A stretch of 64,000 nt of DNA from an uncultured Gelidibacter sp. (GTDB lineage: Bacteria > Bacteroidota > Bacteroidia > Flavobacteriales > Flavobacteriaceae), in the NCBI RefSeq assembly GCF_947500795.1, contig NZ_CANMTE010000007.1, forward strand, positions 12,456 to 76,455. Direction: 5' to 3'. Of this stretch, positions 29,806 through 54,000 are shown one piece after another; within the stretch, counting starts at the first letter, position 1; each line of letters starts with the position of its first letter. The position numbers and the translations under genes were made by a program. The notes below the pieces were generated by a model. It was given only the letters and a program-made list of their open reading frames with translations, had not been told where the DNA came from and made no database searches.

Positions 29806-29850
29806 TGCAGCTTTAGTCGCGCTCATAAATGCTATGATATATAGAAAGCT

Positions 29851-35978: not shown

Positions 35979-38900
35979 TTATTTAACACGCGTTGTAAAT
36001 CCTACTGCACCAACACCAGTATTAGCATCTACAAGCCATGGCCCGCGATAAGGCATTTTAGTGTTTGGATATGTATCTCCTAAAAGATAGGTAAGAAGAG
36101 CACCTTTTTTAATGCGTTTTCCATTTAGGATGATGTGCAACTTTTTAGGGTTTTTAGAATGGACTTTCAACTCAGAAATTGAAGTAATTTTTTTAGAATT
36201 GATTGCAAATAATTGATCTTTTACGGAATAAACATGACCGTCCACTTTTAAGTCTGGCTGAATGGCTATAGGCTTGTCAAATTCGATAATTAGGGATTTA
36301 GCCGATTCTCGTGTTGCGCTCACTAATTGCGGCGCTTGATAGTCTACGGTGCCGTTATAAAAATCGTATATCGCCAAATTTGAAATCCAATCCGCCAACA
36401 CCTCATAACCATGCGCGTGGTAATGGCAGCCGTCTGACAAAAAATAATTGCCATCAAATAAAGGATTTTCTGGGAATCCATGACGCGTAATGATTTTCAC
36501 TTCTGAATGTTCTTCAGCAAATTGTCGTTGTGCTTCTCTCACCGTTTGATGCCCGCTTGATACGCTACATCCTGGCGGGGTTTGAACCACGTAAAATTTT
36601 TCAAATGTATAATCTGATTTGAGATTTTCATACAATTGATAAAGTGCGTTTTTATAATCAGACACCGAATCGCCCGCGTTACTTTCACCTTGATTCCAAA
36701 TAAATGCTTTGATGTAGTGCTTTAGTCCCGATGCGTCTAATTTGTGTTGCAATCGCCCGTAAGCTGCATTTAAACCATAATCGTTTTTTTGATAGGATGC
36801 AATGGCACCACCTCCGCCTGCACCGTTAATGATGGCGATGGGCACATTTTGAGAAGCTACTAAATTCAGACCAATATTCGAACCCAACACGCCCACCATG
36901 CCGTTGCCAACACGCTCTCCTTTCCCAACAATATCTGGTGCTTTCCCACTGGCTATATACCAGTCTGAGTTTTCAGCTTCAGGATAGATGGCTGGACTAT
37001 TGTACAAATGCATGGCACCAATGGTTCGCACCCATTGTGCATTTGAAGACAAACTTTCTTGATTATACACATTATCATAATCTATAGCCCAAGCGTTAGA
37101 TTGGCCACTTAACACGTACACATCACCAGCAGTGATATGCGTGGCTTTTTTAATCAGATAATCTTCATTTTCATGCTTAGCGAAGAGTTCAATGGTATAA
37201 TTGTGTTTTAGGGCTTCAATTTTTAAAGGAAGTGAAAAAGCACCATTTACACCCATGGCATGCTTCGTAATAATTCCCTTATCACGATGTACTTTTATAA
37301 GGATACTATCCACGCTACTGTCGGCAATACCAGAAACAGTTATCGTGGCGTTGTTAGTCGCATCTCTTGCATAGAGCTGATTGTCTTTGGGGAATTCAGT
37401 TACGGAAACCTTTGGCTCCGTATTAAAAACAGCTCTGAATTTTAAATCGTCCACCTCCTTAACAGCACCATTTTCTAAATGTATTGGCACACAGGTGAAC
37501 ATCCACTTCCATGAATTCTTATCTTGAGGAATTTTTAAAAGCACTTTATTCCATCCTTTTTTAAGGGCGATTTTAGTAGGTGCTCTAAAGAAATAATCTT
37601 CGTCTATAAATGGGATTTCGTCAGTTCGGGTACCTAAATTAGGTTGCTTCCAAACGGGCGGCGCTATTTCTGTTCCATTCACCCAAATTTTAGGATTGGT
37701 GGTATGCCATTGCCCCTGATCAGGAAATGGGCCTACACGTCTTCCGCCGGAGCGCGACCAACCCTGAAACCCTAACCAGAAATCCTGTACCCGATCGTCA
37801 GGCGCATAAATCTCCGTATAGGCATAATAGGTTCCTGTTTGGTCAGTAGTTAAAGCTGGAAATCCGAAAAAATGTTTAAAATGCGTCGTCCCACCAACGA
37901 TAGGTTGTGACCATTTATAATCTTTTCTGTCTATTTTATATAAAGCGACCAAGGAATCCTCAACTGGGAATCGCAGGTTCACATCGCCATTATGTTTAAA
38001 CGGCCCGATGACGTTCCATTCAAAGCTCGTTTGACGTACATATTGAAATTCTTTTCCATTAAAGAATAGGTCCCGGTGAGTGACGACTTTGTCTTCAAAC
38101 GCTATAAATTCCTTTAATTCTTTTGAACCGACTGGTGGCAACTTCGCCCAATATTCGAGCTTATTTTCTGCGCGTCCTTTCCAAATCGCATCCGCATAAA
38201 ACACGATGGATGGATAAATCGGATTTTGAATTAATATATCGCGCTCCTTGGCCACATTATTATCGGGCCACGCTGCTAAAATGCCGCCCAAGGCTAGAGC
38301 ATCACTTTGTGGTTGACGCGTAGGCTGTTGAAAAAACACCCGCGCCATTCCCGCAAAAGGATCTAAATGATTGATATAATTGGCGCGCGAATCTATAAAA
38401 CGATGTCCTTTACGTGGCGAGTGCTGTGCCCATAACTGATTGATGGAAGTGGAATCGTCTTCAATTTCAATGCCTTCTTTCCAAACAATAAGCTCTCTGT
38501 TTTTAGATTTGACACGATCCATGATGGTTTTGATAAACCCGTCTGGAACATATTCTTCCTTATTTCTAACTTCATCCGTACCAATATGAATGTACGGCAT
38601 CTCATCAGCGCTTGCCAAACCCATCAATTCATCAAACAAGTCCAATAAAACAGGGAGCGCCCGCTCATCTTTCATGTTTTCAAAACCCATCGCGTTTCTA
38701 AAAGCACGCGAATGTCCTGGAATATCAAATTCCGGAATCACGGTAATATGCCGTGCTTTACAAAATGCCAAAATCTCCTTAAAATCGTCTTGGGTGTAGA
38801 ACTTTCCTTTCCCTCGTGACGTAGCGTCTTCATTCTGCAATTGCGGATACAACTTACTCTCAAGTCGCCACCCTGGATCGTCAGTTAAATGCCAATGGAA

Positions 38901-39461
38901 TACATTGTATTTGTATTGGGACAAAACTTCCAACTGCTCTTTTAATTGGGCGACCGATTGGAAATTTCGGCCGGTATCGTGCATAAATCCTCTGATTTTA
39001 AATGCTGGCCAATCGGTGATTTGCAATTGTGGGATGACACCATAATCGTTCTGCTGTCTGAACACTTGTTGCAATGTTTTTATAGCATAATACGCGCCTT
39101 TTGCAGTGGTGGCCCATATTTTTATCTCAGAATCGAGTTGTATCTTATAGGCTTCTTCAGCATTATGAACCGGAATATGCTCCTGGATCATCTGGATTTT
39201 TAAACCGTCCGACGCTTCTGAAATACCATTGTTTTGGAAAAACGATTTCAATTGATTAGACTCACTGACAAAATCAGTTTTTACAATTTGAAAGGTCTTA
39301 AAGCTCACTTCACTCTTTCCGTATTCAATTTCCTGAGGTGTTGGTATGATGGGATACTTCTTCTCTAGAATATTTTTTTGAGTGGTACCAGCATAAACCT
39401 GGATCATCCCTATAAGGATGAATGCCACAATGCACCCAATATTTTTATAAGATAGATTCAT
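35979..39461 (-). CDS. Fusion: GH20 beta-hexosaminidase plus C-terminal SASA/CE6-like SGNH O-acetylesterase
   Basis: GH20: RGFMHDTGRNF, HWHLTDDPGWR, PEFDIPGH, IHIGTDEV. SGNH: VLSGQSNA, GAGGG, WNQGESN, DGCH. Probable start MNLSY at 39461 (ORF track 39491 overlaps GH27). Confidence 0.85.
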   Translation of the reverse strand: MNLSYKNIGCIVAFILIGMIQVYAGTTQKNILEKKYPIIPTPQEIEYGKSEVSFKTFQIVKTDFVSESNQLKSFFQNNGISEASDGLKIQMIQEHIPVHNAEEAYKIQLDSEIKIWATTAKGAYYAIKTLQQVFRQQNDYGVIPQLQITDWPAFKIRGFMHDTGRNFQSVAQLKEQLEVLSQYKYNVFHWHLTDDPGWRLESKLYPQLQNEDATSRGKGKFYTQDDFKEILAFCKARHITVIPEFDIPGHSRAFRNAMGFENMKDERALPVLLDLFDELMGLASADEMPYIHIGTDEVRNKEEYVPDGFIKTIMDRVKSKNRELIVWKEGIEIEDDSTSINQLWAQHSPRKGHRFIDSRANYINHLDPFAGMARVFFQQPTRQPQSDALALGGILAAWPDNNVAKERDILIQNPIYPSIVFYADAIWKGRAENKLEYWAKLPPVGSKELKEFIAFEDKVVTHRDLFFNGKEFQYVRQTSFEWNVIGPFKHNGDVNLRFPVEDSLVALYKIDRKDYKWSQPIVGGTTHFKHFFGFPALTTDQTGTYYAYTEIYAPDDRVQDFWLGFQGWSRSGGRRVGPFPDQGQWHTTNPKIWVNGTEIAPPVWKQPNLGTRTDEIPFIDEDYFFRAPTKIALKKGWNKVLLKIPQDKNSWKWMFTCVPIHLENGAVKEVDDLKFRAVFNTEPKVSVTEFPKDNQLYARDATNNATITVSGIADSSVDSILIKVHRDKGIITKHAMGVNGAFSLPLKIEALKHNYTIELFAKHENEDYLIKKATHITAGDVYVLSGQSNAWAIDYDNVYNQESLSSNAQWVRTIGAMHLYNSPAIYPEAENSDWYIASGKAPDIVGKGERVGNGMVGVLGSNIGLNLVASQNVPIAIINGAGGGGAIASYQKNDYGLNAAYGRLQHKLDASGLKHYIKAFIWNQGESNAGDSVSDYKNALYQLYENLKSDYTFEKFYVVQTPPGCSVSSGHQTVREAQRQFAEEHSEVKIITRHGFPENPLFDGNYFLSDGCHYHAHGYEVLADWISNLAIYDFYNGTVDYQAPQLVSATRESAKSLIIEFDKPIAIQPDLKVDGHVYSVKDQLFAINSKKITSISELKVHSKNPKKLHIILNGKRIKKGALLTYLLGDTYPNTKMPYRGPWLVDANTGVGAVGFTTRVK

Positions 39462-39468
39462 TATTTTT

Positions 39469-40656
39469 TTATTTTGACAATCGGTAGACAATCACATCTC
39501 GAGATGGCACCTCAATAGATAATTTCGAACTTGTATTGCCCATCATTTTGTCTTCCCATAAATCTTTAATTTGGTATACGTTCTCTGCTGAAAAATCTTT
39601 GATGTTGATTTTTGTCCAATCCACTTCATAGGTTTTAGTAGCGATGTCTCGATTAAAGAAGCAAATGGCAATGTCGCCGTTAGAAAGCGGTTTTTGCCAA
39701 ATTTCAAAATTTCCAAGATCAACAATTTTAAACCCTTGTTTTCCCAACACATCCTGATTGACTTCTAATAATCCTTTATGGGTTAAAATATGCTGATCCG
39801 TAGCATTCATAGTGCGTAAATCGTTGCCTGCCATTAAAGGTGCTGCCAACATACACCACATGCTAAAATGTGCTCTTGCTTCGTTTTCAGGCATCCCATT
39901 GTTGCCCACAGCCAACATATCCGGATCATTCCAATGTCCCGGTCCCGCATATTTTTCTAAGCCAACTTGCATGTCAACCAAGTCAGACCATCCAATCAAA
40001 TTACCCCAAATATTGCCGTCATAGCGGCCATTCATATCAATATCTAAGGTCGTGCGCCATAAGTGACCCACGTCCTTACCCCATTCCCATGGTTTGTTTT
40101 CACCCCATTCGCACAGGCTAAAAACAATAGGTCGGCCTGCTTTATATAGCGCGTCTCTCATAAGTGTATAGGATGCTATGGCATCTTGGCCTTCCGTAAA
40201 GCACCAATCGTATTTTAAATAATCAACACCCCACTTGGCATAGGTTTCTGCATCTTGCATTTCAAACCCTTTACTTCCAGGACGCCCAGCACAAGTTTTT
40301 GTACCCGCATCAGAATAGATGCCGAATTTCAAGCCTTTAGAATGCACATAATCAGCCAAACTTTTAATCCCTGATGGAAATTTCTCCTTATCAACAATGA
40401 TATAGCCGTTATCATCACGACCTATCTGCCAACAATCGTCAATAACAATGTATTCATACCCAGCGCCCTTAAGCCCCTTTTCAACCATAGCATCAGCCAT
40501 CTCCTTAATGACGGTTTCATTGACACCCTCACATTCAAAACTGTTCCAACTATTCCAACCCATTGGTGGTGTTTGTGCTAAATTTTCGAATTTTTGTGCC
40601 GTACTTTTGGTGGCGAAACCAAAGGCTAAAACGATTAAAAGAAACTTGATTTTCAT
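39469..40656 (-). CDS. GH27 alpha-galactosidase / alpha-N-acetylgalactosaminidase
   Basis: TPPMGWNSWN, YIVIDDCW, YLKYDWC nucleophile, WRTTLDI acid/base, WNDPDML; signal peptide. Confidence 0.95.
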   Translation of the reverse strand: MKIKFLLIVLAFGFATKSTAQKFENLAQTPPMGWNSWNSFECEGVNETVIKEMADAMVEKGLKGAGYEYIVIDDCWQIGRDDNGYIIVDKEKFPSGIKSLADYVHSKGLKFGIYSDAGTKTCAGRPGSKGFEMQDAETYAKWGVDYLKYDWCFTEGQDAIASYTLMRDALYKAGRPIVFSLCEWGENKPWEWGKDVGHLWRTTLDIDMNGRYDGNIWGNLIGWSDLVDMQVGLEKYAGPGHWNDPDMLAVGNNGMPENEARAHFSMWCMLAAPLMAGNDLRTMNATDQHILTHKGLLEVNQDVLGKQGFKIVDLGNFEIWQKPLSNGDIAICFFNRDIATKTYEVDWTKINIKDFSAENVYQIKDLWEDKMMGNTSSKLSIEVPSRDVIVYRLSK

Positions 40657-40671
40657 GGTTATATATTTTTT

Positions 40672-42753
40672 TTAATTTGAAAATGTGGATGCTGGCAATC
40701 CGGCATCATTGACTAAATTTCCGTTGGAAAAGGAACTATACACATACCTTACAAAGCGAGGGGTTTCAATTTCCGGGGACCAAATTTGCAAGACGTCATT
40801 CACGATTTTACTGTGTGCAGGAACAAATGTCTTGTCCGGTCCCGCAATATAAATATCATTCACAGAAGCGTTTCCTGGTGTTTTCAAACCTTGTCCGTGT
40901 TTAAAATGGACTTCCAACCTATTCTTGTTGACGTTTACAAAGTCTAAAAGTGGTCCGGAGAAAGAATTCTCAACACCATAAGTTTTATGAAGTGCTATTT
41001 TAGAAAGTCGCTCGCCCACAACCCATTTCTGTTTTGGATGCACATCAGTTTCATGGCCCACATCCAAACTGACCGCCATACCTGTATTTGGAATTTCCAA
41101 TAATCGGCGTTGCGAATCCCTAAACTCTCCCCAATTTGGACGATTGATACTGCTCAACTGCACATAATAAAAAGGCAATTCTGGAGTCTTGAAATGGCTA
41201 CGCCAATCGTCCACCAACAGTTTAAATAGTTTCGAATGCAAGTTGACATGCTCGGTATTTGATTCGCCTTGGTACCAGATGACGCCTTTTATTTTGTAAT
41301 CTCTGATGGGCATCACGCCTCCATCAAAGAGCATTGTTGGATGATAGGGATGTCTTGCCCTAATCCCATTCTTAGAAAGGCCTTTCATATTTAAAGCCGC
41401 ACGCTCTGCCACCCAAGTATCAACTTTAGGATGCAAGTGGGTATCATTAAGCAAACTCACGGTCTCAGGATGCTGTTCCATCGACTCCCTGCTGATCCAA
41501 CTTTGAATGGGCGCTCCACCCACAGCATTGTTAATGATTCCAACAGGAACCCCTAATTGCTTTTGAAGTTTATAGGCGAAGGCATAGGCTACTGCGGAAA
41601 AATCGTTTAGGTTTTCGGTTGTCGATGGAATCCATCCAGAGTTTTTGAAATACGAGTTGGCATTACATTCTTTAAGTTCAGCTTCTGTGTATGGTTTGTT
41701 AGACAATACTTTTCCGTCCATTGAGAATAGAAACACTTGCGGATTAAGGGAATCTTTTAAAACGGTCGCCGCATGTTCCATCTCACGGACTTTAAAGTCC
41801 ATGTTAGACTGCCCTGAAGCCAACCAAACCTCACCTATATACACCGACTTTATTTCAATAGAATTTTCAGCCGTTGCAAACTTTAAGGCATAAGGACCGC
41901 CTGCTGGCATTGGAGGAAAAGTGACCTGCCATTTGCCATGCACATCAGCTTTTGCTGTTTTCGAAACGTTGTTAAATCGAACAGTAATAGTTTCATCAGC
42001 ATTAGCTGTACCATTAAAACTAATCGGTTCATTACGTTGCAATACCATATTCTCGCCGTAGAGCACAGGGAGTTTTAATCCGCCGTAATCCCCAGTAAGA
42101 GCAGCATACACTTTATCGGCGATAACTGTTGCACCTTCTTTGGTGGGATGTAAATTATCAGGAAAGTATTCAGGAAATCTATAAAGTGGCTCGTGCAAAT
42201 CGATGACTTGTACTGCTGCTTTCTCGGCAATGCCTTCTATTTTTACTTGGATTTCCTTAAAACTTTCGCGCATGCCTTCTTCAAACCAATGGTGTCCAGA
42301 AAACGTGGGCGTCATTTTGCAAATCATAACTTCAGGCTTTGATGGCAGATTTTTGTAGAGTGCAATCATTTCCAAATAATCCTGTTCAAATTCGGCGTGG
42401 TGGTCTGGCCAGTTATTATTGCCTTGATCGTTCAGGCCTAAATGAATGATGACAATGTTAGGCCCAAAATCTTGTGACGCTTTAAATTGGGACGTTTTCC
42501 AATAAGGTTTATGTCCGTTTTTAAGCATAGTCGCCCCGGAATATCCAAAGTTTCCCACCTCGTAATTTGCGCCTAAACGCTCTTGCAGTTGTTGCGGATA
42601 GGAATTTTCTTCACGATCCTCAATTCCTGCCCCGAAGGTCACACTATCCCCCACACAGGCAACTTTTATGGTTTGGGAATTTAATAGGAAAGAAGAACAC
42701 AACATTAAACTCAGTAAAATTATGCGGTAATTATTTGAAGACTTTTTCATCAT
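40672..42753 (-). CDS. Two-domain sialate O-acetylesterase (GDSL/SGNH + SASA)
   Basis: VACVGDSVT...HLGLND...DNLHP, then WLASGQSNM...WYQGESN...DVHP. Probable start 42753 or 42750 (ORF track 42792). Confidence 0.9.
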   Translation of the reverse strand: MMKKSSNNYRIILLSLMLCSSFLLNSQTIKVACVGDSVTFGAGIEDREENSYPQQLQERLGANYEVGNFGYSGATMLKNGHKPYWKTSQFKASQDFGPNIVIIHLGLNDQGNNNWPDHHAEFEQDYLEMIALYKNLPSKPEVMICKMTPTFSGHHWFEEGMRESFKEIQVKIEGIAEKAAVQVIDLHEPLYRFPEYFPDNLHPTKEGATVIADKVYAALTGDYGGLKLPVLYGENMVLQRNEPISFNGTANADETITVRFNNVSKTAKADVHGKWQVTFPPMPAGGPYALKFATAENSIEIKSVYIGEVWLASGQSNMDFKVREMEHAATVLKDSLNPQVFLFSMDGKVLSNKPYTEAELKECNANSYFKNSGWIPSTTENLNDFSAVAYAFAYKLQKQLGVPVGIINNAVGGAPIQSWISRESMEQHPETVSLLNDTHLHPKVDTWVAERAALNMKGLSKNGIRARHPYHPTMLFDGGVMPIRDYKIKGVIWYQGESNTEHVNLHSKLFKLLVDDWRSHFKTPELPFYYVQLSSINRPNWGEFRDSQRRLLEIPNTGMAVSLDVGHETDVHPKQKWVVGERLSKIALHKTYGVENSFSGPLLDFVNVNKNRLEVHFKHGQGLKTPGNASVNDIYIAGPDKTFVPAHSKIVNDVLQIWSPEIETPRFVRYVYSSFSNGNLVNDAGLPASTFSN

Positions 42754-42760
42754 AAATAAG

Positions 42761-43462
42761 TTATAGCGATCCAACAATCCAAAGTACAACATACGGCGAA
42801 ATAAGTGTGGTCAGAATTCCATTGACACACATGGCCAATCCACTATACGCGCCGGGTAAAGGTCCGATTTCAATAGCACGCGCAGTACCGATACCATGTG
42901 CTGCGGTCCCGAGCGCCGTTCCTACAGCGGTCTGGCTTTTGATGCCTATTAACCTCAAAAATCCCGATCCAAAGGCATTTCCAAAAACCCCTACCGCAAT
43001 CACAACACCTGCCGTTAAGGAAGGAATTCCTTCAGTGATTTTGGTGATTTCAATCGCTATTGGCGTGGTGACTGACATGGACACAAGTGACCTGATGAGC
43101 ACATCAGGAGCATGCATCGCAATAGAAATTAAGGATACCGAAGCAATACTGATGATACCGCCACAACCTACGGCCAATAAAAAAGGGTAAATGTTATGTT
43201 CGATCAGTTGGTATTTTTCATAAAAGAGAACACCAAGCGCTACAATGGCTGGTCCCAGAAAAAAACTCAAATATTGTCCGCCTTTATTATAATCCTCAAA
43301 AGGGATATCAAAAACTACCAAAAACAGAATAATGAGTGTAATGGCTACTAAAACAGGATTAAATAAAACGAATTTTATTTTGGACCGTAAAGCTCGCGCA
43401 GCAAAAAAAACCACGACGGTAAGAAGAATGCCAAAAACGGGAAGCTGATAGAAGTCAATCAT
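42761..43462 (-). CDS. lrgB: LrgB-family membrane protein
   Basis: FLGPAIVALG, SVTTPIAIEI, ALGTAAHGIGTARA; probable start MIDFY at 43462, overlapping the lrgA stop (ATGATTGA). Confidence 0.92.
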   Translation of the reverse strand: MIDFYQLPVFGILLTVVVFFAARALRSKIKFVLFNPVLVAITLIILFLVVFDIPFEDYNKGGQYLSFFLGPAIVALGVLFYEKYQLIEHNIYPFLLAVGCGGIISIASVSLISIAMHAPDVLIRSLVSMSVTTPIAIEITKITEGIPSLTAGVVIAVGVFGNAFGSGFLRLIGIKSQTAVGTALGTAAHGIGTARAIEIGPLPGAYSGLAMCVNGILTTLISPYVVLWIVGSL

Positions 43463-43793
43463 GTTTTTCCAGTTTTTGTTGTACGAACGCTGTAATGTAG
43501 AGGGTGAGTAGCGTCGTGACAACTGCAATAACAGATAGAATCATCCAGTAAGCACTTATAAAATCAAAGTACGACATGAGTCCAACGCCATAAGGCACAA
43601 AAAACAGTACCATGTACTTCAATAGTTGATCTGAAGCCGGTTTCACGTCTTTCAGCTGGATCAACTTTAATTTTAAAGCGCTGAAAATTAAAATCATCCC
43701 CAAGATATTCCCAGGAATTGGAACATCTGACACGTAGCGAATCAACTCTCCTATCCCGAGGAATAAAAAAATCCAGAGGAATGCTTTGAGCAT
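43455..43793 (-). CDS. lrgA: CidA/LrgA-family membrane protein
   Basis: VPIPGNILGMIL, LLKYMVLFFVPYGVGLM; probable start MLKAF at 43793. Confidence 0.92.
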   Translation of the reverse strand: MLKAFLWIFLFLGIGELIRYVSDVPIPGNILGMILIFSALKLKLIQLKDVKPASDQLLKYMVLFFVPYGVGLMSYFDFISAYWMILSVIAVVTTLLTLYITAFVQQKLEKHD

Positions 43794-43847
43794 TTGTAAT
43801 CGACTACGGAGTGGACTCATTAATTTTCAGCGCTATGAGAAAAAAGG

Positions 43848-44975
43848 TTATTTTTTCTTAGGTTTTTGATAGGTGTCTGCACCATCAGTCAACCAATTTA
43901 GTGAAAAACTCACAAATGGATTCTTAGTATAGTTATCTTGTTCAAAGAACAATCCGATATCACCATTATCAAGAATTGTCATCTCTGAATATGCAGAAGA
44001 CCCTTCATAAATAGTTTTTCCTTCTGACCAGGTTTTTCCTTCGTCATAACTGATACGCACGGTCATATTAACACGTCCTTTTTCAGATTTCGCATTTGAA
44101 AAAAGTAGTCTGTTCTTTTTGTAACCATCTTCAATTGACGTATAGCGAATGATGCTGGCATTACATCCTGGATCAATCAACTCTGGCGCAGGAACGGTAG
44201 TCCATGATTTTCCTTCATCTGTAGAGGTGTGCACGTAACGTAAGCCTTTGCCATTAACACGAGCGTTGATCATTAAGGTACCATCAGCAAGCTCAATCAC
44301 TTTGGATTCGTCAGCTGGTTGAATTGGCGTGTCTATAAAATACCAAGTTTTACCGTGGTCATCACTACCAAACAAGTGTAGGCCACTATTCAAATTCACC
44401 ATGGTATGCAATAATTTGCCTGAGCGGGTTTGGATACCTCTTCCTGAAGTGATGAATTTAAAATCTTTGTGCCATTCTGATTTCGCGATTTGTGAGGTAA
44501 TATCTACCGGTTTACTCCAGGTTTTACCGTTATCAGAACTCTTCACATAATGTAGGTAATAGATATCTTTTTCAGTATCCAAATTCATATAATTATAGAA
44601 CATGAAAATCTCATTGGTTACGTGATCTACAATAAATGAAGGATCAGAAGCTGATTCACCATAAGGGAAATCGACTGCCGTTTCAATATCTGACCATGTT
44701 TTCCCATTATCAGCGCTTCGTCTGACAATAATATTAATGTCCTTACTGAATTTCAAATCGCCACAGCCAGGCACACGTTCATCAATTGCCGCAATCACAT
44801 CGCCATTTGGGGCGGTAATAATGGCTGGAATACGGTAACACTCTACACCTTCAGTCATTGAAGTGTTGAACAAATCTTGAAATACGGGCGCACCATCATT
44901 TGTGCTCGTGTTTTGGGTTTTTACACCGCAATTAAAAAGGAATACTGGAATCAGTAATGCAATTAGTTTTCTCAT
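43848..44975 (-). CDS. nanH: GH33 exo-alpha-sialidase, catalytic-domain-only lipoprotein
   Basis: Lipobox LFNC; YRIP; five Asp-boxes (SADNGKTW, SSDNGKTW, SDDHGKTW, STDEGKSW, SYDEGKTW); catalytic residues in ADESK, NAR, KGR and SAYS. Confidence 0.93.
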   Translation of the reverse strand: MRKLIALLIPVFLFNCGVKTQNTSTNDGAPVFQDLFNTSMTEGVECYRIPAIITAPNGDVIAAIDERVPGCGDLKFSKDINIIVRRSADNGKTWSDIETAVDFPYGESASDPSFIVDHVTNEIFMFYNYMNLDTEKDIYYLHYVKSSDNGKTWSKPVDITSQIAKSEWHKDFKFITSGRGIQTRSGKLLHTMVNLNSGLHLFGSDDHGKTWYFIDTPIQPADESKVIELADGTLMINARVNGKGLRYVHTSTDEGKSWTTVPAPELIDPGCNASIIRYTSIEDGYKKNRLLFSNAKSEKGRVNMTVRISYDEGKTWSEGKTIYEGSSAYSEMTILDNGDIGLFFEQDNYTKNPFVSFSLNWLTDGADTYQKPKKK

Positions 44976-45188: not shown

Positions 45189-45962
45189 TTATTCGTACAT
45201 ATTATGCACATTCGCGTGATGTAATTCTTCAAAAAAATCAGCGATGTTGCTTACTACAGCGTCTAAAAATGCTTTGCCTTTTTCTGCAGTCGCTTTTATC
45301 GGATTACCCACACCGGTATCTTCAGTTACCTGTGTCCATTGACGTTGCGAGCTCACCCAACCTTCTCTAAGGCCTTTAATTTTAAATTGTTTGGCACTTC
45401 CACTTCCTGCTTGCTCAAGTGGTAATACCAAATTTGGCACAATATGCATCACTGCAGAAGTCTCCAACTCGCCGGCATGATCTCCAGGTTCATCAAAATA
45501 GTCTTTAGCATTGGCTGCCTGAAACCAGTTTAGGGCACAGACAAACACGTTTGGAAATTCTATGCTCAGTTCGCGAATCATCTGCTTAAAATTATTGCCG
45601 CCGTGTGCATTGACGATCACTAATTTTTGAATGTTTTGACCATCCAACACCTCAACCACATCTCTCAAAACAGCATATTGTGTGCTTGGATTCATATTGA
45701 TACATAACGAAATGTCCATCTGACCTGTATTCACTCCAAAAGGAATGGTTGGCAACACCACCACCTTCGCACCCTTATTCCAGGCTTGTTCCGCAGCAGC
45801 GATAGCCACATATTCTGCTTGAATATTATCAGTGGCATACGGCAGGTGGTAATTATGGGCTTCCGTAGCGCCCCATGGCAAAATAGCTACCGTATAATTG
45901 GTGTCTTTAACTGACTTCCAATTGGTTTCTGCCAACACATAAGGTCGTATAGCGTTCGTCAT
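45189..45962 (-). CDS. Creatininase-family metallo-amidohydrolase
   Basis: LPWGATEAHNYHLPYATD (E-x-H...D), NAHGGN, DHAGELETS; metal ligands intact; no signal peptide. Confidence 0.9.
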   Translation of the reverse strand: MTNAIRPYVLAETNWKSVKDTNYTVAILPWGATEAHNYHLPYATDNIQAEYVAIAAAEQAWNKGAKVVVLPTIPFGVNTGQMDISLCINMNPSTQYAVLRDVVEVLDGQNIQKLVIVNAHGGNNFKQMIRELSIEFPNVFVCALNWFQAANAKDYFDEPGDHAGELETSAVMHIVPNLVLPLEQAGSGSAKQFKIKGLREGWVSSQRQWTQVTEDTGVGNPIKATAEKGKAFLDAVVSNIADFFEELHHANVHNMYE

Positions 45963-45966
45963 CGTA

Positions 45967-47127
45967 TTATTTCTTTTGTTCTATTTTTTCGAACGATTTC
46001 CAACATTGGTACATCGCTCTTGGCACATGGAAACATCCTTTCCATTTGCCACCTTTTAAATCTAATAACACCTCGCCTTGGCGGTTCAAATAACCATACC
46101 ATTCGCCATTTTCAGGATCTGAGAAATGAGACCACGCATACTCGTGAACCTTTTCATACCAATCCATCAATTCTTTTCTCCCTGTGTGTTCATACGCTTT
46201 AGATAATGCGACCAAAGCTTCTAAGTGTACCCACCATAGTTTTTGATCCCACTCCAACTGTTGTGGCGGTTTGTTCATGACGTCCATAAAGTATAGGATT
46301 CCGCCATACTTTTTATCCCATCCGTAGTCCAAAATTCTTAGGATGGTATCCGCAGCTTTATTGATCAATTCCTTATCATTTCTTCTCACCCCAATATCAA
46401 TCATAAACCACATGGCTTCAATACCGTGACCCGGATTTATAAGTCGGCCGTTATAACTATCCTCATGCGTGCCATCAGGACGGACAAATTCGTACACAAG
46501 TCCGGATTCTTTATCTAAAAACACATTCATGACTTCATTGATACTGAAATCGATGGTTTTGTTCACTTCCTCTTCATCCAAAACCCCTTCCAATTCCAAC
46601 ACTAAGTTGGACAAAATCATTGGCAAGGAAAAACTTTTCAACGGGCGCTCACTGGTCGTTTTCTCGTAACTCCCTTTTGGATTGTCTTTCTTTTTAAGAA
46701 TATTCAAATAGGTTTGCTTGGCGAGTTGTTTAATTTCTTCATCACCAGATGCCATAGCGTATTGACTAAAAGCCATCGCTGCAAAACAATCTGAAAAAAT
46801 ATTATACGGCTGTACTAACGGATTTCCTTCTTTGGTTGTCGAGAAATAGAAATTGCCATCTTTATCCATACCGTGTTTAATGATAAAGTCAATACCATGT
46901 TTGGCTAACTTCAACCAGTTTTCATTTTTTTCGACAGTATTGTAAAGCATAGAAAAGGTCCACGCTTGACGACCTTGAAGCCACATAAATTTATCCGTAT
47001 CATAAACTTTACCTGTTTTATCCAAACATGTAAAATAACCACCATGCTCTGTATCAATCGAGTGTTGTTCCCAAAAAGGGATGACATCATTCAACAAAGT
47101 GTTTTTATAAAGTGTTGTATAGTTCAT
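45967..47127 (-). CDS. nanE: N-acylglucosamine 2-epimerase (AGE family)
   Basis: [51 protein letters not shown]. Confidence 0.93.
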
Positions 47128-47216: not shown

Positions 47217-47249
47217 CAAATTTAGATTGATAAATTACATTTGCACAAA
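47217..47249 (-). promoter_or_regulatory. Bacteroidota sigma70-type promoter for the nanE operon
   Basis: Minus strand TTTG(47249-46)-N21-TAAATTTG(47224-17). A plus-strand -7 box TACATTTG (47236-43) probably serves the GntR gene. Confidence 0.7.
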
Positions 47250-47259
47250 TTAAAATTCA

Positions 47260-47979
47260 ATGAAAAATCGCATTGCCATAAAGCCCTTAACTAATTTAAG
47301 CCTAGTAGATAAGGTAGAAATAAGTATTACAGAATATATTAAAAATAATAAGCTTCAGGTTGGTGATGCGATCCCAAAAGAAACGGAGTTTGCTGAGACT
47401 TTGGGGGTGAGTAGAACGGTGATTAGAGAAGCCCTTACCCGATTGCGCACGATTGGCATTATCGATTCAAAAAAACATAAAGGCATGGTTTTAAGCCAGC
47501 CGGACTTTATTTTGAATTTTGAGAAAGTGATGAGCCTTAACTTAATGGGCGATGAAGCTTTAAAGGATATTTTTGAAATGCGTTTGATTCTAGAAATGGG
47601 GATGGTCGATTTAGTGTTCGCCAGAAAAACAGCCGAAGACTTGGAAGAGTTGACCAAAATAGTAGATAGAATGGAGAAAAAGTCTCCCCATTCGAGTGTT
47701 TTTAGTTTGAAAAATGAGGTGGCATTTCACGGAAAACTTTACGAAATGTCAGGCAACAGAACTTTGCAACGCGTACAAAATATTTTGTTACCGGTGTTTC
47801 AATACGTGCATGACCACAAATTATCAGATGCCAAAACCTATAAGTATTCCAAGAAATTCGTCACGCATCGCGATCTTTTAAATTACCTAAAGGATGACGA
47901 CATTAAAAAATTCAGAAAAGGATTGGCGCAGCATTTAGAACCTCATTTTGAGAGAGTCCTTATGAATTCTGAATTTTAA
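47260..47979 (+). CDS. FadR/GntR-family transcriptional regulator (NanR-like)
   Basis: wHTH motif GDAIPKETEFAETLGVSRTVIREAL; C-terminal FCD domain (EVAFHGKLY); embedded in the nan cluster. Confidence 0.93.
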   Translation: MKNRIAIKPLTNLSLVDKVEISITEYIKNNKLQVGDAIPKETEFAETLGVSRTVIREALTRLRTIGIIDSKKHKGMVLSQPDFILNFEKVMSLNLMGDEALKDIFEMRLILEMGMVDLVFARKTAEDLEELTKIVDRMEKKSPHSSVFSLKNEVAFHGKLYEMSGNRTLQRVQNILLPVFQYVHDHKLSDAKTYKYSKKFVTHRDLLNYLKDDDIKKFRKGLAQHLEPHFERVLMNSEF

Positions 47980-48418
47980 CTTTAACCACTACTTTTTTCA
48001 CGTTTGATGGAGCTCCAGTAGTCACTTCGGGCATGTGGATATCGTCTGGAAAGAAGATGGCATACATTCCTGCTTTAACCGTGATAATGTCATAAGGCTC
48101 CTCAAATAGCATGTAATCATCTTCTGGATCATAGGCTTTTTTAGGGTCTTGTCCTGATTTCATAGTGACGCCCATATGCTCAACACCTTCAATTACATAT
48201 TGTACATCAATATATTTGATGTGAGACTCCATAAGTTGATCTTCAATTGGCTTTGTTGGGTATTCCTTTAAAATAGCAAAGACAGCATCGCCATCAATCT
48301 CATGTTTGCCTACTGGCAAGGCATCAAAATTGGTGTTTTTAATATACGCTAACGCCTTATCAATCCCTTTGTGAAGGCCTTTGTATAGGCCTATGTTTTC
48401 AATTTTATCTACAATCAT
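47960..48418 (-). CDS. nanQ: YhcH/YjgK/YiaL-family protein (NanQ-like)
   Basis: ESHIKYIDVQY, IFFPDDIHMP, VKKVVVKV; adjacent to nanA. Family is clear; orthology to NanQ is inferred from context. Confidence 0.85.
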   Translation of the reverse strand: MIVDKIENIGLYKGLHKGIDKALAYIKNTNFDALPVGKHEIDGDAVFAILKEYPTKPIEDQLMESHIKYIDVQYVIEGVEHMGVTMKSGQDPKKAYDPEDDYMLFEEPYDIITVKAGMYAIFFPDDIHMPEVTTGAPSNVKKVVVKVKIQNS

Positions 48419-48438
48419 ATTAAATCTGTTTTAAACAT

Positions 48439-48476
48439 AAAAAAACCAAGTTCAAAAGTAAATTCAAACTTGGTTT
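48439..48476 (-). terminator. Terminator after nanA
   Basis: Stem AAACCAAGTT/AACTTGGTTT, 14-nt loop, T-tract on the minus strand. Confidence 0.8.
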
Positions 48477-48484
48477 CTTTCAAA
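48453..48484 (-). promoter_or_regulatory. nanQ promoter nested in the terminator
   Basis: TTTG(48484-81)-N20-TACTTTTG(48460-53); the -7 box lies in the hairpin loop. Confidence 0.65.
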
Positions 48485-48498
48485 ATTAATTATTGCTA

Positions 48499-49404
48499 TT
48501 AATTACTTAAATGTTCTAATAATCCGATACGCTCCAATTCTGCCCTGATTTCAACATAAACATCATCAGAAAGCGTGGCATGTGGAAATCTGCTTGGTCC
48601 ACAATCGATGCCCAAAGTCTTCATAAAGCCTTTAGCAACGCCGTTAAATCCACCGTAACCATCTAATATTTCAACAAATCGTATTGCTTTTGTTTGCAAT
48701 GCAGCTGCTTCAGCCATTTTGCCTTCTTCAAACAAAGATTTTATTTTATAATATGCCGGTGCTAAATGGTTATAAGTACTTCCTACCCATCCATCAGCTC
48801 CTAATGGTAAACTTGAAAGAAAGATCTCATCAAATCCGAAAAGGATGTTGTATTTACCGCCTTCAAAATTCTTGCAATGCAAATAATCGATCAGGTTGTT
48901 ATTGGTAAACTTGATGCCTTCTAAATTCGGGATTTCTTTAGAGGCCACTTTTAAGAACTCAGCCATGTTTAAATTGGCGCCACTCAACACTGGAATGTGG
49001 TAATAGTAAAACGGTAAATTAGGCGCACAAGCGGCAACTTCTTTACAATAGTGCACCAACTTATCAATACTATTTAATTTAAAATAGTAAGGCGCTAATA
49101 CAGCAATGGCGTCTACTTTATCTGCAGCAAATGTCGCTAAGTCTTTTGCCACCTTCAAACTTGGATCTCCAACGTGGTCAATCAAATATAAATCTGACGA
49201 TTTATGTTTAGCCCAAGCACTGGTTATTTCCTTGCGCTCTTCAGTAGATAAGGACACGAAGTCTCCTGTGGAGCCATTCATAAAAATTCCGGCTACTTTA
49301 TTTTTAACCAAAAATTCTCCATAGGCCTTAATAACACTGGTATTTAATGAACCATCTTGGTGCATTGGCGCATAGGTAGCTGCTATTAAATTATTTATTT
49401 TCAT
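48499..49404 (-). CDS. nanA: N-acetylneuraminate lyase (DHDPS family)
   Basis: NGSTGDF, YYYHIP, Schiff-base GIKFT, FGFDE, GWVGSTYN; nan context. Confidence 0.92.
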   Translation of the reverse strand: MKINNLIAATYAPMHQDGSLNTSVIKAYGEFLVKNKVAGIFMNGSTGDFVSLSTEERKEITSAWAKHKSSDLYLIDHVGDPSLKVAKDLATFAADKVDAIAVLAPYYFKLNSIDKLVHYCKEVAACAPNLPFYYYHIPVLSGANLNMAEFLKVASKEIPNLEGIKFTNNNLIDYLHCKNFEGGKYNILFGFDEIFLSSLPLGADGWVGSTYNHLAPAYYKIKSLFEEGKMAEAAALQTKAIRFVEILDGYGGFNGVAKGFMKTLGIDCGPSRFPHATLSDDVYVEIRAELERIGLLEHLSN

Positions 49405-49499: not shown

Positions 49500-51008
49500 T
49501 TAATTGGTATAACCTGCTGTTTGCGTCAATAATGGATTTCTACCAATCATATCTTCTGTGATAGGCAATTCCAATTTGTACTCATCACCAGGGTTAAGGA
49601 AATCGATGTTATTGATAACATAACTGTTTCCTGCACGTCTTAAATCCCACCATCTTTTACCTTCACCAATAAACTCTTTGTAACGCTCATCTAAAATAGC
49701 ATTCGTATTTTCTGCTTGAGAACCGTTAACATAGCCATGGATTAAAGGATTGTAATTAGATCCGTAAGCTCTTGCACGGATTTGGTTGATTTCTTCAGAT
49801 GGATCTTCACCTAACAAGTTTTTCACTTCGGCCAACATTAATACCACGTCAGCATATCTGTATAAAGGCACGTCGTTTTCGAAAATACGCTCTGAACCAA
49901 TAACTTTTCCTAAGAACTTATTGAAAATAGCTCCAAAATATTTAGACTCTGTATACGTTGGATATCCTAATCCAGCATTATCATCTTTATATAATCTGAT
50001 AAAAGTCGCATCTTTTCTTTGGTCTTTATTATCATCCAATAGCATAAGCACTTCTTCTGAAGGACCATATCTATTTGCACCTGCAATAACAAAAGCACCC
50101 ATGGACTCTCCCTGATCATTAAATTGAGGGTTAATCTCCGTAGATCTACCTGTTAAACTGTTGTAGAAGTTTTCAGCCTCATCTTGCTTATATTGAAAAG
50201 CAAAAATAAACTCATTATTTCCTTCATTGTCAACACCCCAAAGGCTGTTAACATTTGGCGCCAAGCTAACTCCTAAAGAAGAAATTTGTTGTAACGCAGT
50301 CTTAGCTTCAGTAAAATCTGCACTTCCGCCACCTAGTAAATTTCCAGACCAGATATAAGCATCACCTTTAAGTGCTAGTGTAGCCGCTTTAGACCAAAAC
50401 ACTCTGCTTCCTTCCCAATAGCTATTATCAGATCCAAAAGCGTTTAAAGACGCTGCAATATCCGATTTTATCAACGCCATAACCTCTGTTTTAGGAGATC
50501 TTGCTCTACTTAATCCTTCTGGATTAACTTCAGCCAAAGGCTCTAAAATAATTGGCACATCACCCCAAGTTTTCAATAACGTGTAGTAGTATAACGCTCT
50601 CAAACCATAAGCCTGACCCATTAAATGGTTTTTCTCTGCTGGATTAACAAACGTTACGTTTGGTGCATTCTTGATAAAATCATTAACTCTATGGATTCTA
50701 GTATACAATCCTGCCCAACCTCCAAATGGCGCTGTAGCAACTGTAATATTAGATTCGATTAAATTCTCACTGAAAGGTGATTCGAAGGTTCTTCCACCCC
50801 AAATATCACTTCTCATTTCTCCTAACTGCCAGAATGTTCCTGCTGTTCCTCTTAGATTGGCAAACATACCAGTATGGGCAGTTTTTACACCTTCTTCAGT
50901 ATCCCAAAAACCTTGGGCTGTCAATTCGCTAGGACTTGTCAATTCTAGCTCGTTTTCACAAGCACTGAAAGTGACCAGAGCTATAAATATATAAATGTAC
51001 TTTTTCAT
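49500..51008 (-). CDS. susD: SusD-family lipoprotein (NanU-like by context)
   Basis: Lipobox FSAC; GEMRSDIW, GQAYGLRALYY, YRYADVVLMLAE, ERYKEFIGEGKRWWDLRR. Confidence 0.95.
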   Translation of the reverse strand: MKKYIYIFIALVTFSACENELELTSPSELTAQGFWDTEEGVKTAHTGMFANLRGTAGTFWQLGEMRSDIWGGRTFESPFSENLIESNITVATAPFGGWAGLYTRIHRVNDFIKNAPNVTFVNPAEKNHLMGQAYGLRALYYYTLLKTWGDVPIILEPLAEVNPEGLSRARSPKTEVMALIKSDIAASLNAFGSDNSYWEGSRVFWSKAATLALKGDAYIWSGNLLGGGSADFTEAKTALQQISSLGVSLAPNVNSLWGVDNEGNNEFIFAFQYKQDEAENFYNSLTGRSTEINPQFNDQGESMGAFVIAGANRYGPSEEVLMLLDDNKDQRKDATFIRLYKDDNAGLGYPTYTESKYFGAIFNKFLGKVIGSERIFENDVPLYRYADVVLMLAEVKNLLGEDPSEEINQIRARAYGSNYNPLIHGYVNGSQAENTNAILDERYKEFIGEGKRWWDLRRAGNSYVINNIDFLNPGDEYKLELPITEDMIGRNPLLTQTAGYTN

Positions 51009-51018
51009 CTTCTAAAAT

Positions 51019-54000
51019 TTAAAATGTTACGTTAAGACCTAATGTAATCGTTTTTGGCACTGGGAATGACCCATATTGAACCCCACCTTCTTCTGGTGTA
51101 TCTCCACTCAGACTCTTAAAGTAATGCAAGTTTGATCCTGTTACGTAGATGCTTAATCTTTGGATAGCATCGTTAAAATATTTACTTGGCATGTTATAAC
51201 TCAAGGTTACTTCACGTAATGCTAAATAATCTCCTTTTTCCCAGAATTTCTCGTTACCATAGTGCTGTAAGTCTGTTGCACCTTCTCCACCTCTCCAAAC
51301 GTTTTTGGATCCGTTAACGAAAACGAAACGTGGCCAATCTGTATCAGTATTGTTTGGTGTCCAAGAATCAGCTACTTCAATTGGCTGTGCTAAGTTACCT
51401 TGCGTTTGACCATAACCTTTGTTTCTAATGTGGTTCCACACTAAATGTCCGGTTGCAAAATCAGTCTTCACAAATAAGTTGAAGTTTTTATAGGTCATAC
51501 TTGTTGTTAAACCTCCAATGAAATCAGGAGTTGTACGTCCGATAACTTTTCTGTCTAAATGATTAATAACACCATCACCATTTTGATCTACCCACTTAAC
51601 ATCTCCAGCCCAACGTTTGTTACGGCTAGCACCTGGCATGTAATTGTCAGTAATTGCATTGTCAGCATCAGCTTCAGCTTGCGTTTTATAGATACCTGCT
51701 TGCTCAAAAGCAACCACTAAGTCATGACCTGAACGTTGGCCTTCTTGATAACCACCAACCCATTCTTCTTGTCCAGTTGATGCATTCCAAATCAATGTAC
51801 CACCTTGTCTGTTTAAGTCGTTATCATTTTCAGGAAGTTTAACAACGTAGTTTTTGTTTGTTGTAAACGTCGCACCCATGTTCCATGTAAAATCTTCGTT
51901 TCTAACAATATCACCATTAACTTGCAATTCAAAACCTTTGTTTCTGATGGTTCCGTTGTTAGTTAAGATACCGCTAAACCCAGTGTAGTATGGTAATGTT
52001 AAGTATGCTAATTTGTCTTTAATGTCTCTTGAATATACATCTGTAATAATAGACACTCTGTTATCAAAGAAAGAGATATCTAAACCAGCATTAAACGTTG
52101 TTGATTTTTCCCATAATAGGTCTTGTGTTGGTAATGAAGAATTGGCATATCCGGTTTGACCGTTGTAAACACCTTGTCCTCCATAAGATCCAAATACACC
52201 GTAATTACTTAAGACGTCTTGGTTACCGTTAACACCATAACTTAATCTTGGCTTGATTCTAGAAACTACATTCTTAAGTGAAGATTCTTGGAAGAATGTT
52301 TCATTATGTACATTCCATCCGAAAGATACACCAGGGAAGAAATCGAATTTATTGTTACCTAATCTTGAAGAACCATCATATCTATAGGTAAAGCTGAATA
52401 AGTAACGATCATCAAAATCATATAACAATCTACCAAAAGTAGACGTGATTACATATTCCGTTTCAAAACTGTAAGGAATTCCATCAGCTTCAGCTCCAGC
52501 ATTTAGAGTTTCAATTAAATCTGTTGGAGAATTTCTTGTTCCTGCAGAGGTTCCGAAATAATTATCTTTATAGTACTCCGCACCAATTAATGCGTTGAAA
52601 CTGTGCTCACCAACTTTCTTAGTATAGTTTAAAGTTCCTGTCAATTGGTTTCTTAATGTTCTACCTAAACTCACTGCTGCTTCACGTCCTGTACGTAATG
52701 GACCTGAGTTACTACCAGTTCTATATGCTCTGTTAAAGCTTGAGTTATGATTATTAACTGTAAAATGACTTCCTGTTAAAGAAAATTTCAAGTCATTAAG
52801 AATGTCCCAATCGATACCTACAGAAGCAGACAAACGTTGCTCTAAATTTTTTCTGACAAATTTATCTTGATAGTATAATGGGTTACCGAAACCTTCGTTT
52901 TGGCCTGGAGCATATTGATCTGACCATGTACCGTCTGCATTACTATCAAAGGTTCTAGAAGTTGGCGCTTGACCTTGGAATCTTCTAAACACTGTATCAT
53001 CTCCACCTAATGGGCTTCTTGTGAAGTTAGAGTGCGAGTAAAGTACGTTTGAGTTTACTTTAAATTTATCGCTAATTTTATAAGATCCGCTGAATTTACC
53101 CGAGTATCTTAAAAATCCTGACCCTAAAACTAAACCATCATTATCTAATGCACCTAAACCTAAATAGTAAGTCCCTTTCTCGTTACCACCGTCAAAAGAT
53201 AAATAGTGATCTTTAGATGCGCTAGTTTGATAAATACGATCTCCTACTTCTGGGTTGTCATAAAATAAGATTTCTTTGGTTGGATCTAAAATATCTGGAA
53301 TCGTTTTCCATCCTGGTGTATTCAACAAGTAGCTATTTGATGCCGATAAAAATTGCGTTGTAAACGGATCATTTGTCGCATTGTTACCAGTACCTGCTCC
53401 ATTATTCCCATCTAAGAAAGCACCGAAAGCACCCGCGTTACCAGCAACTTGTCTGTTCCAAGCAATAGACTGTCTGTTATAGTCAATATGTTGCGCCGCG
53501 TTAAGATACTTCTGATCGTTTCTTTCGTGGTTCATACTATACTTATACTTGTAGTTGATAGAAGATTTCCCAACTTTACCAGTTTTAGTAGTTACTAAGA
53601 TGACACCATCCGCAGATCTTGCACCATAAATAGCGGTTGCAGCTGCATCTTTAAGAACCTCAATAGACTCAATATCGTCTGAGTTTAAAGCGAAAAATGA
53701 CCCTGGAATACCATCAATTAAGATAAGCGGAGACCCTGTACCATTAAAACCAGTACCACCACGTAAAACAATTTGCGGCGTTGCACCTGGCTGACCAGTT
53801 GTGTTGGTTACTCTTAAACCAGCAATTGTTCCTTGTAACGCTGTAGCAACGTTAGATCTGGTTGACGTTTCTAACACTTGCGTATCTAATTTAGATACTG
53901 AAGTAGTTAGTTTAGCTCTACTTTGTTGGCCGTACCCTGTAATTACAATTTCGTCCAACATTGCTGCATCTTCTTTTAAAGACACATTGATTACTGCCTG

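Follow-up and report, generated by a model that had tools for sequence, protein, structure and literature searches.

lrgA and lrgB in the sialic-acid locus of Gelidibacter

The window analyzed here, a stretch of 64,000 nucleotides (nt) from an uncultured Gelidibacter sp. (RefSeq assembly GCF_947500795.1, contig NZ_CANMTE010000007.1, positions 12,456 to 76,455 of the forward strand), carries a sialic-acid polysaccharide utilization locus (PUL) in which a gene pair of the LrgA/LrgB family, lrgAB, lies between a sialidase and an esterase gene. A preliminary description of this DNA had proposed that the pair is a monocarboxylate valve dedicated to sialic-acid catabolism rather than a holin/antiholin system. 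On balance, and with some reserve, we favor the view that lrgAB encodes a two-subunit inner-membrane carrier of C2-C3 hydroxy- or oxo-monocarboxylates which would be paired with a creatininase-like amidohydrolase, and which would act neither as the sialic-acid importer nor in lysis. The genes on which this proposal depends are listed below (aa, amino acids).

43455..43820, minus strand: lrgA, small LrgA/CidA-family subunit with 4 transmembrane segments (121 aa, or 112 aa from the start ATG at 43793); PF03788, E = 1.4e-28
42761..43462, minus strand: lrgB, LrgB/CidB-family subunit with about 7 transmembrane segments (233 aa); PF04172, E = 3.1e-70
43848..44975, minus strand: BNR sialidase, lipoprotein; BNR_2 and BNR_3 matches, lipobox signal peptide
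40672..42753, minus strand: exported SGNH and SASA sialate O-acetylesterase; Lipase_GDSL_2 and SASA matches, signal peptide
45189..45962, minus strand: creatininase-family metal amidohydrolase; PF02633, E = 6e-58
45967..47127, minus strand: N-acylglucosamine 2-epimerase (AGE), NanE-II type; NF052547, 659.5 bits against a 600-bit cut-off
48499..49404, minus strand: N-acetylneuraminate lyase-like (NanA-like) protein of the dihydrodipicolinate synthase family; PF00701, best NCBIfam match N-acetylneuraminate lyase, below the cut-off

The PF03788 and PF04172 matches were both above the gathering scores, and hydropathy analysis gave 4 hydrophobic segments in LrgA and about 7 in LrgB. The two genes are adjacent and co-oriented, the small subunit with about 4 transmembrane segments preceding the one with about 7, which is the arrangement that defines LrgA/CidA and LrgB/CidB pairs. 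The lrgA stop codon (43455-43457) and the lrgB ATG (43460-43462) were read directly from the sequence and give a gene overlap of 8 nt. From the sialidase stop at 43848 to lrgA there are 54 nt if translation starts at ATG 43793, the start kept across genera in an N-terminal alignment, or 27 nt if it starts at ATG 43820, and the lrgB stop (42761) lies 7 nt from the esterase ATG (42753). The spacings previously given (8 bp, 54 bp and 7 bp) were thus confirmed, and the Pfam matches together with the position between sialidase and esterase bear out that an LrgA/LrgB pair is embedded in the sialic-acid operon. This lrgB is the only LrgB gene of the genome, and its product is 94% identical to LrgB of G. 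sediminis and G. salicanalis.

The best NCBIfam match of LrgA was the YohJ-type model PRK01821 (89.8 bits, cut-off 124), and LrgB reached 162.1 bits with the YohK-type model PRK10711 (cut-off 267) and also matched TIGR00659, again below the cut-off. Escherichia coli YohJ and YohK, with 38% identity to LrgA and LrgB, respectively, were the closest characterized relatives among those compared; as in Gelidibacter, they are encoded by separate LrgA-type and LrgB-type genes with a stop/start overlap. Since the scores are below the equivalog cut-offs, the Gelidibacter pair is not a YohJK ortholog, and the contexts also differ, yohJK lying beside cdd in E. coli whereas lrgAB of the window lies in a glycan locus near an amidohydrolase gene. 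The staphylococcal models scored lower than the YohJK-type models (LrgA, PRK04125, 54.6 bits, cut-off 136; LrgB, PRK04288, 132.1 bits, cut-off 264). No control of the staphylococcal LytSR type was evident directly beside lrgAB; a LytTR system of a type common in the family is found about 12 kb away. An AlphaFold2 model of LrgB (mean predicted local distance difference test score 74.5) had no structural relative in the PDB by Foldseek (best E = 2, template modeling score <=0.24), and a sequence search of the PDB with LrgB gave no match.

The annotation of LrgAB and CidAB as "murein hydrolase regulators" is still widespread, and the known substrates come from a few Firmicutes, E. coli and plants. 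The historical family annotation "murein hydrolase effector" and the holin activity that S. aureus CidA and LrgA can show in a lysis-cassette test (PMC8805020) would agree with a holin/antiholin-like role in which LrgAB modulates a murein hydrolase, lysis or vesicle release in order to free the PUL enzymes. Such a role is hardly credible in this locus: the annotation of the 64-kb window includes no murein hydrolase or endolysin gene, the exported enzymes encoded beside lrgAB all have Sec or lipoprotein signal peptides of their own, and the conserved partner of the pair (see below) is a cytoplasmic amidohydrolase. The cluster does not resemble a lysis cassette, in agreement with the earlier preference for transport over a holin/antiholin function.

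Recurrence of lrgAB in nan loci

The distribution of LrgB was determined in samples of 201 Flavobacteriaceae and 401 Bacteroidota genomes; genomes are cited below by G numbers, and loci or contigs by L numbers. LrgB was rare, occurring in 11 of the Flavobacteriaceae and 12 of the Bacteroidota genomes with one copy per genome. The close relatives of the LrgB of the window (44-96% identity) formed one clade (96% support in the Shimodaira-Hasegawa-like approximate likelihood ratio test, SH-aLRT), apart from other Bacteroidota LrgBs.

An lrgAB pair embedded in nan genes was found in all Gelidibacter loci retrieved (11 loci and G017) and also in Arenibacter, strain MAR_2010_105 (L118), G005 and the related contig L128, and G195. 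The metagenome contigs L121, L123, L125 and L126 carry several nan genes alongside lrgAB, and L127 and L122 have barely more than a sialidase beside it. The gene orders varied, for example AGE-sialidase-creatininase-GH20-lrgAB-esterase in G195 and AGE-lrgAB-SiaF in Arenibacter, and the sialidase-lrgA adjacency was seen in Gelidibacter, G005, L118, L122, L123 and L125-L128. Altogether at least five lineages or contigs besides Gelidibacter share the linkage, and no fewer than six gene orders were seen, so the adjacency first noted in the window is not confined to this genome. More distant LrgAB pairs (35-47% identity) of Bacteroidota genomes and metagenomes showed neither nan nor creatininase linkage, indicating that the association is specific to this LrgB clade. 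No published mention of LrgAB as part of a nan locus or a PUL was found in literature searches combining LrgB with sialic acid or with PULs, and LrgAB is not mentioned in a survey of sialic-acid transporters (PMC8461474).

The creatininase-family partner of lrgAB

The creatininase-family protein of the window (45189-45962) scored below all NCBIfam equivalog cut-offs (creatininase, MftE, ArfB and IolN), and its nearest solved structure was PDB 3LUB, a "putative creatinine amidohydrolase" (E = 1.5e-66). No signal peptide was predicted for this cytoplasmic enzyme. Two sets of homologs were distinguished. One is a "housekeeping" group with about 55% identity, whose genes are often neighbors of a fatty-acid hydroxylase gene. 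The other is a nan/LrgAB-linked clade on a long stem (100% SH-aLRT), whose genes lie either next to lrgAB or in nan PULs, irrespective of whether these contain lrgAB.

The linked creatininase clade was present in all seven genomes with this LrgB clade as against 13 of 201 overall (Fisher p = 7e-10, uncorrected for phylogeny), and AGE in six of the seven as against 22 of 201 (p = 6e-6, likewise uncorrected). The lrgAB clade is accompanied most consistently by the creatininase-family amidohydrolase, and not by NanA. The preliminary description had focused on NanA and had not considered this enzyme.

A bare creatininase-lrgA-lrgB operon was found in Salegentibacter (12 loci), Zunongwangia (3 loci), G137, Antarcticibacterium and four metagenome contigs. 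The gap between the creatininase gene and lrgA was -20 to +15 nt across about 20 of these stand-alone operons, which are translationally coupled. In a test set of 14 genomes with lrgAB outside a nan locus (12 with the stand-alone operon and two Galbibacter with lrgAB alone), nine had no AGE ortholog, suggesting that the sialic-acid pathway is probably missing from them. A function "dedicated to sialic-acid catabolism", as first proposed, is thus too strong a claim for a clade that also occupies stand-alone operons. The LrgB tree has nan-embedded pairs on its deepest branches (G195 and Arenibacter) and places the stand-alone operons together in a single derived group (95% support), indicating that the creatininase-LrgAB module probably arose in a nan context and became independent later. 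It is better described as a module recruited to, or derived from, sialic-acid PULs.

The linked creatininase clade was also present in nan PULs without lrgAB (L057, L058, L061 and L062), often directly beside SiaF. Wherever the creatininase gene lay outside nan PULs, with or without lrgAB, a gene for an MSMEG_0569/ArsO-like flavin monooxygenase was divergent from it (L018:7362-8414; L019, L056, L059). A link to bacillithiol was considered and rejected, because the flavoprotein divergent from the stand-alone operon is MSMEG_0569/ArsO-like and not YpdA. A literature search for creatininase and sialic acid found nothing relevant.

Sialic-acid import and the SiaF transporter

SiaF of the related nan PULs is a NanM(Kelch)-SSF fusion of about 880-910 aa (PF24996 and PF00474), a type that is the predicted N-acetylneuraminic acid (Neu5Ac) transporter of Bacteroidetes (PMC8461474). 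The genome of the window (G000) encodes a full-length SiaF ortholog (65-70% identity) at C3:536067-538676; this gene is outside the nan PUL, on another contig, where it lies among GH29 and GH20 genes near the contig end. SiaF was also found in G017, G005 and G195, that is, in every other genome with nan genes and LrgAB that was checked, and SiaF and lrgAB lie within one cluster in Arenibacter, G005, L121, L126 and L128. The presence of SiaF on another contig of G000 indicates that LrgAB is accessory, an addition and not a replacement.

LrgAB is unrelated to SiaF in fold and family and falls outside the known sialic-acid transporter types ST1-ST8 (MFS, TRAP, ABC, SSS, SiaF; PMC8461474); the NanT model TIGR00891 gave only weak MFS matches in the genome. 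That LrgAB is the missing Neu5Ac importer was rejected as the principal explanation on account of SiaF in G000 and in the other nan and LrgAB genomes checked. In a rival proposal LrgAB would provide another inner-membrane import route, for Neu5Ac or for a sialic acid carrying modifications, and hence form a ninth transporter type. This proposal agrees with the fact that lrgA and lrgB are the only inner-membrane genes within the nan cluster of the window, with sialic acid being itself a 2-oxo-carboxylate, with the silence of the transporter survey on LrgAB (PMC8461474) and with the gene order of G195, where lrgAB takes the slot between the GH20 and esterase genes that SiaF holds in G027 and G043. 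On the other hand, G000, G017, G005 and G195 already encode SiaF (full-length on contig C3 in G000), the same LrgB clade is retained in genomes that probably have no nan pathway, and sialic acid would exceed every known substrate of the LrgAB family threefold in size. We therefore regard import of sialic acid by LrgAB as very unlikely.

The G195 slot, together with the translational coupling of the creatininase-lrgA-lrgB operons and the enzyme-beside-importer pattern formed by the same creatininase clade abutting SiaF in nan PULs without lrgAB (L057 and L061), would also fit import of the amidohydrolase substrate by LrgAB. This substrate would be a small carboxylate-bearing amide or cyclic amide hydrolyzed in the cytoplasm by the creatininase-like enzyme, derived from sialic acid in nan PULs and from the environment in the case of stand-alone operons. 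The proposal has no evident candidate substrate, LrgAB family members carry nothing known beyond a C3 acid, and the clusters that SiaF shares with lrgAB also speak against it; we consider it unlikely.

Candidate substrates of LrgAB

Pyruvate is moved by Bacillus subtilis PftAB (YsbAB) and by streptococcal and staphylococcal LrgAB (PMC5626966, PMC6790026, PMC12632267), glycolate and glycerate by the plant plastid transporter PLGG1 (AtLrgB) (PMC4368765, PMC6993116), and E. coli YohJK is a putative 3-hydroxypropionate exporter (PMC7642389). Release of glycolate by the catabolism of N-glycolylneuraminic acid (Neu5Gc) has also been proposed (PMC3658417). The Gelidibacter pair shares two Pfam families and a two-gene architecture with the PftAB/LrgAB pyruvate transporters, and a further parallel is the NanA-like, pyruvate-producing enzyme of the PUL. 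PLGG1 is a single fused LrgA-LrgB polypeptide, whereas lrgA and lrgB of the window are two separate open reading frames (ORFs). It belongs to the same family and exports a C2/C3 hydroxyacid by-product from the compartment that generates it, which is the logic that we propose for glycolate from N-glycolyl sugars.

Several variant loci encode enzymes of such acids. In L121 a 960-aa fused FAD/Fe-S dehydrogenase (YdiJ/GlcD and GlcF-like) is encoded two genes upstream of lrgA. Directly downstream of lrgB the contig encodes a BhcA/PhnW-like class V aminotransferase with best matches to aspartate-glyoxylate and pyruvate-dependent transaminases. The nan-type locus of L123 includes a D-2-hydroxyacid dehydrogenase (2-Hacid_dh). 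L148:6257-10714, from an unrelated metagenomic lineage, has the order GlcD-like oxidase, Fe-S subunit, LldR/PdhR/GlcC-like regulator and lrgAB (about 40% identity), followed by two CoA-transferases, and looks like a 2-hydroxyacid utilization operon with LrgAB as its carrier. The genome of the window encodes malate synthase and isocitrate lyase but has neither GlcDEF nor a GlcA/LldP-type permease, and the absence of the permease agrees with a carrier role of LrgAB. These clues favor a small 2-hydroxy- or 2-oxo-acid, without deciding between pyruvate and an acid derived from an acyl group. A small-carboxylate role, as originally suggested, fits both the LrgAB family and these loci.

Some of the same clusters contain further genes. 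The nan PUL of L121 (5602-11902) also has genes for a 345-aa protein and a CehA/McbA-like metallohydrolase around lrgAB. L123 (1583-6140, 13715-13975, 15363-18086) has, in addition to the D-2-hydroxyacid dehydrogenase, four flanking sulfatase genes and a gene for an 86-aa semiSWEET right after the NanA-like gene. Genes for PhyH-family Fe(II)/2-oxoglutarate dioxygenases lie between lrgB and the creatininase gene in L126:11103-12381 and L127:2990-3880, and these enzymes may act on modified (e.g. O-methylated) sialic acids.

The NanA-like lyase is the pyruvate source of the pathway, and LrgAB could be coupled to it as a PftAB-like facilitator that exports excess pyruvate or re-imports it and so pulls the reversible lyase towards cleavage. 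Among the substrates of bacterial LrgAB/PftAB, pyruvate is documented best (PMC5626966, PMC6790026, PMC12632267), and the lyase is encoded in the same PUL. A sensor kinase and a LytTR/BtsR-like regulator flank the PUL at 28747-30561, phosphoenolpyruvate synthase is encoded two genes from the Salegentibacter operons, and the L121 aminotransferase also resembles pyruvate-using transaminases. Against this, lrgAB is never directly beside nanA, which in the window lies upstream of a divergent regulator gene and in another unit, the conserved neighbor is the amidohydrolase, and nine of the 14 tested genomes with lrgAB outside a nan locus have no AGE and so probably no pathway. LytTR systems, moreover, are very common in Flavobacteriaceae in unrelated contexts too, and the kinase of the flanking pair had no NCBIfam match. 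A valve coupled to NanA is a possibility to be kept in mind, but a doubtful one.

Alternatively, the creatininase-like enzyme could act in the cytoplasm as a sugar N-deacylase, for instance as a de-N-glycolylase of N-glycolylmannosamine (ManNGc) or N-glycolylglucosamine (GlcNGc) derived from Neu5Gc, and LrgAB could be a bacterial counterpart of PLGG1 that takes the released glycolate across the membrane. This is a rather speculative proposal. If true, it would define a previously unrecognized branch of sialic-acid catabolism, made of acyl stripping and an acid valve and adapted to the sialic-acid modifications found in marine animals (N-glycolyl, O-acetyl, O-methyl and O-sulfate), and it would show how marine bacteria handle Neu5Gc-type sialic acids. 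It would also explain the GlcD/GlcF-type dehydrogenase and glyoxylate aminotransferase of some loci (glycolate to glyoxylate to glycine), the PhyH-type dioxygenase or sulfatases of others, and the stand-alone module, which would work on other N-acyl compounds. If pyruvate is the substrate, by-product venting would be built into the PUL.

In the view that we favor, Neu5Ac would be taken up by the SiaF encoded elsewhere in the genome, and lrgAB would be transcribed with the AGE, creatininase-like, sialidase and esterase genes from a promoter on the NanR side. The working partner of LrgAB would be the cytoplasmic creatininase-family amidohydrolase, the two forming a portable module that some Flavobacteriaceae have in their sialic-acid PULs and others as a stand-alone three-gene operon. 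An organic acid formed as sialic acid is broken down in the cytoplasm would pass through LrgAB along its gradient, the carrier serving as a valve, perhaps a reversible one, for overflow or detoxification. Two origins of this acid are considered. The amidohydrolase could release it from an acyl group, as glycolate in the case of N-glycolyl sugars or as acetate, or it could be the pyruvate that the lyase produces; we rate the former slightly above the latter. From the preliminary description this retains the monocarboxylate valve, a carboxylate carrier being likelier than a lysis system, and replaces both its dedication to sialic acid and its focus on NanA.

Several points weigh against such a carrier. 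The identity, anatomy and conservation of the genes, the association with the partner and the presence of SiaF are observations. We infer the substrate, the direction of transport and the co-transcription of lrgAB, the first of these solely from distant relatives (<=38% identity) and gene neighborhood, and release of the acid by the amidohydrolase is a guess. Among the 22 sampled AGE-positive genomes this LrgB clade occurs in six, nan-embedded in four; the 16 genomes without it indicate that lrgAB is dispensable for the sialic-acid pathway. The stand-alone operon of genomes lacking AGE means that the acid cannot be specific to sialic acid. The co-occurrence statistics take no account of phylogeny, and the contexts of L121, L123 and L148 are each a single example. 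With a glyoxylate shunt (malate synthase and isocitrate lyase) and presumably ordinary pyruvate oxidation as well, there is no obvious reason for an aerobic flavobacterium to release pyruvate or acetate.

For a defined Bacteroidota clade, the genomic context links the carrier to a specific catabolic pathway and a specific enzyme partner, giving one testable hypothesis for two orphan functions, the substrates of the carrier and of the creatininase-like enzyme. It also adds to flavobacterial sialic-acid PULs an accessory element that is absent from the most comprehensive survey of transport loci (PMC8461474).

Transcription signals and other genes of the window

The remaining features of the sialic-acid PUL that were located are as follows.

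51019-54273, minus strand: SusC of the first SusC/SusD pair of the PUL
49500-51008, minus strand: SusD of the first SusC/SusD pair of the PUL
47960-48418, minus strand: YhcH/NanQ-type anomerase
47260..47979, plus strand: divergent NanR-like GntR/FCD regulator; best NCBIfam match NanR, then LldR and GlcC, all below the cut-off
47217..47249, minus strand: match to the Bacteroidetes-type -33/-7 promoter pattern TTTG-N17-23-TANNTTTG, a consensus match only
39469-40656, minus strand: GH27
35979-39491, minus strand: GH20 and SASA protein

All genes of the PUL are on the minus strand except the GntR/NanR-like gene, and a second SusC/SusD pair follows the GH20 and SASA gene at the end of the gene order. 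The AGE gene ends 4 nt before the creatininase gene. The match at 47217-47249, before AGE, was the only full -33/-7 match upstream of the gene string from AGE through lrgAB to GH20, although TTTG-N17-23-TANNTTTG matched seven times in the window against 4.75 expected by chance. No terminator-like hairpin was detected in the minus-strand intergenic gaps from AGE to GH20. A scan for sigma-70-type promoters and terminators, which is ill-suited to Bacteroidetes, gave no more sites than shuffled sequence. The lone promoter match before AGE and the lack of hairpins in the gaps make co-transcription of lrgAB with its neighbors plausible, AGE being the probable first gene of the unit. The GntR/NanR-like gene is retained in related loci, and its product is the probable repressor of the unit containing lrgAB.

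The sensor kinase and the BtsR/LytR-like LytTR response regulator (a match below the cut-off) at 28747-30561 are encoded on the other strand, about 12 kb from lrgAB and between the sialic-acid PUL and an N-glycan PUL. No NCBIfam model matched the kinase. The pair is kept in at least one other Gelidibacter contig (L086), and LytTR/kinase pairs are very common in Flavobacteriaceae in many unrelated contexts.

In most Gelidibacter loci nanA and yhcH are separated by another sialidase-like gene, a divergent one with about 28% identity (L016:3383-4549), which is absent from the corresponding interval of the window (48419-48498). In the congeneric G017 (L016:13604-17133) and in several other Gelidibacter, two separate ORFs of 780 aa and 379 aa correspond to the 1170-aa GH20 and SASA fusion of the window, suggesting that the fusion is either strain-specific or a frameshift or assembly difference. 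Positions 508-28463 of the window are occupied by a locus for N-glycan degradation, which encodes SSS and FucP/NagP-like MFS transporters of its own.

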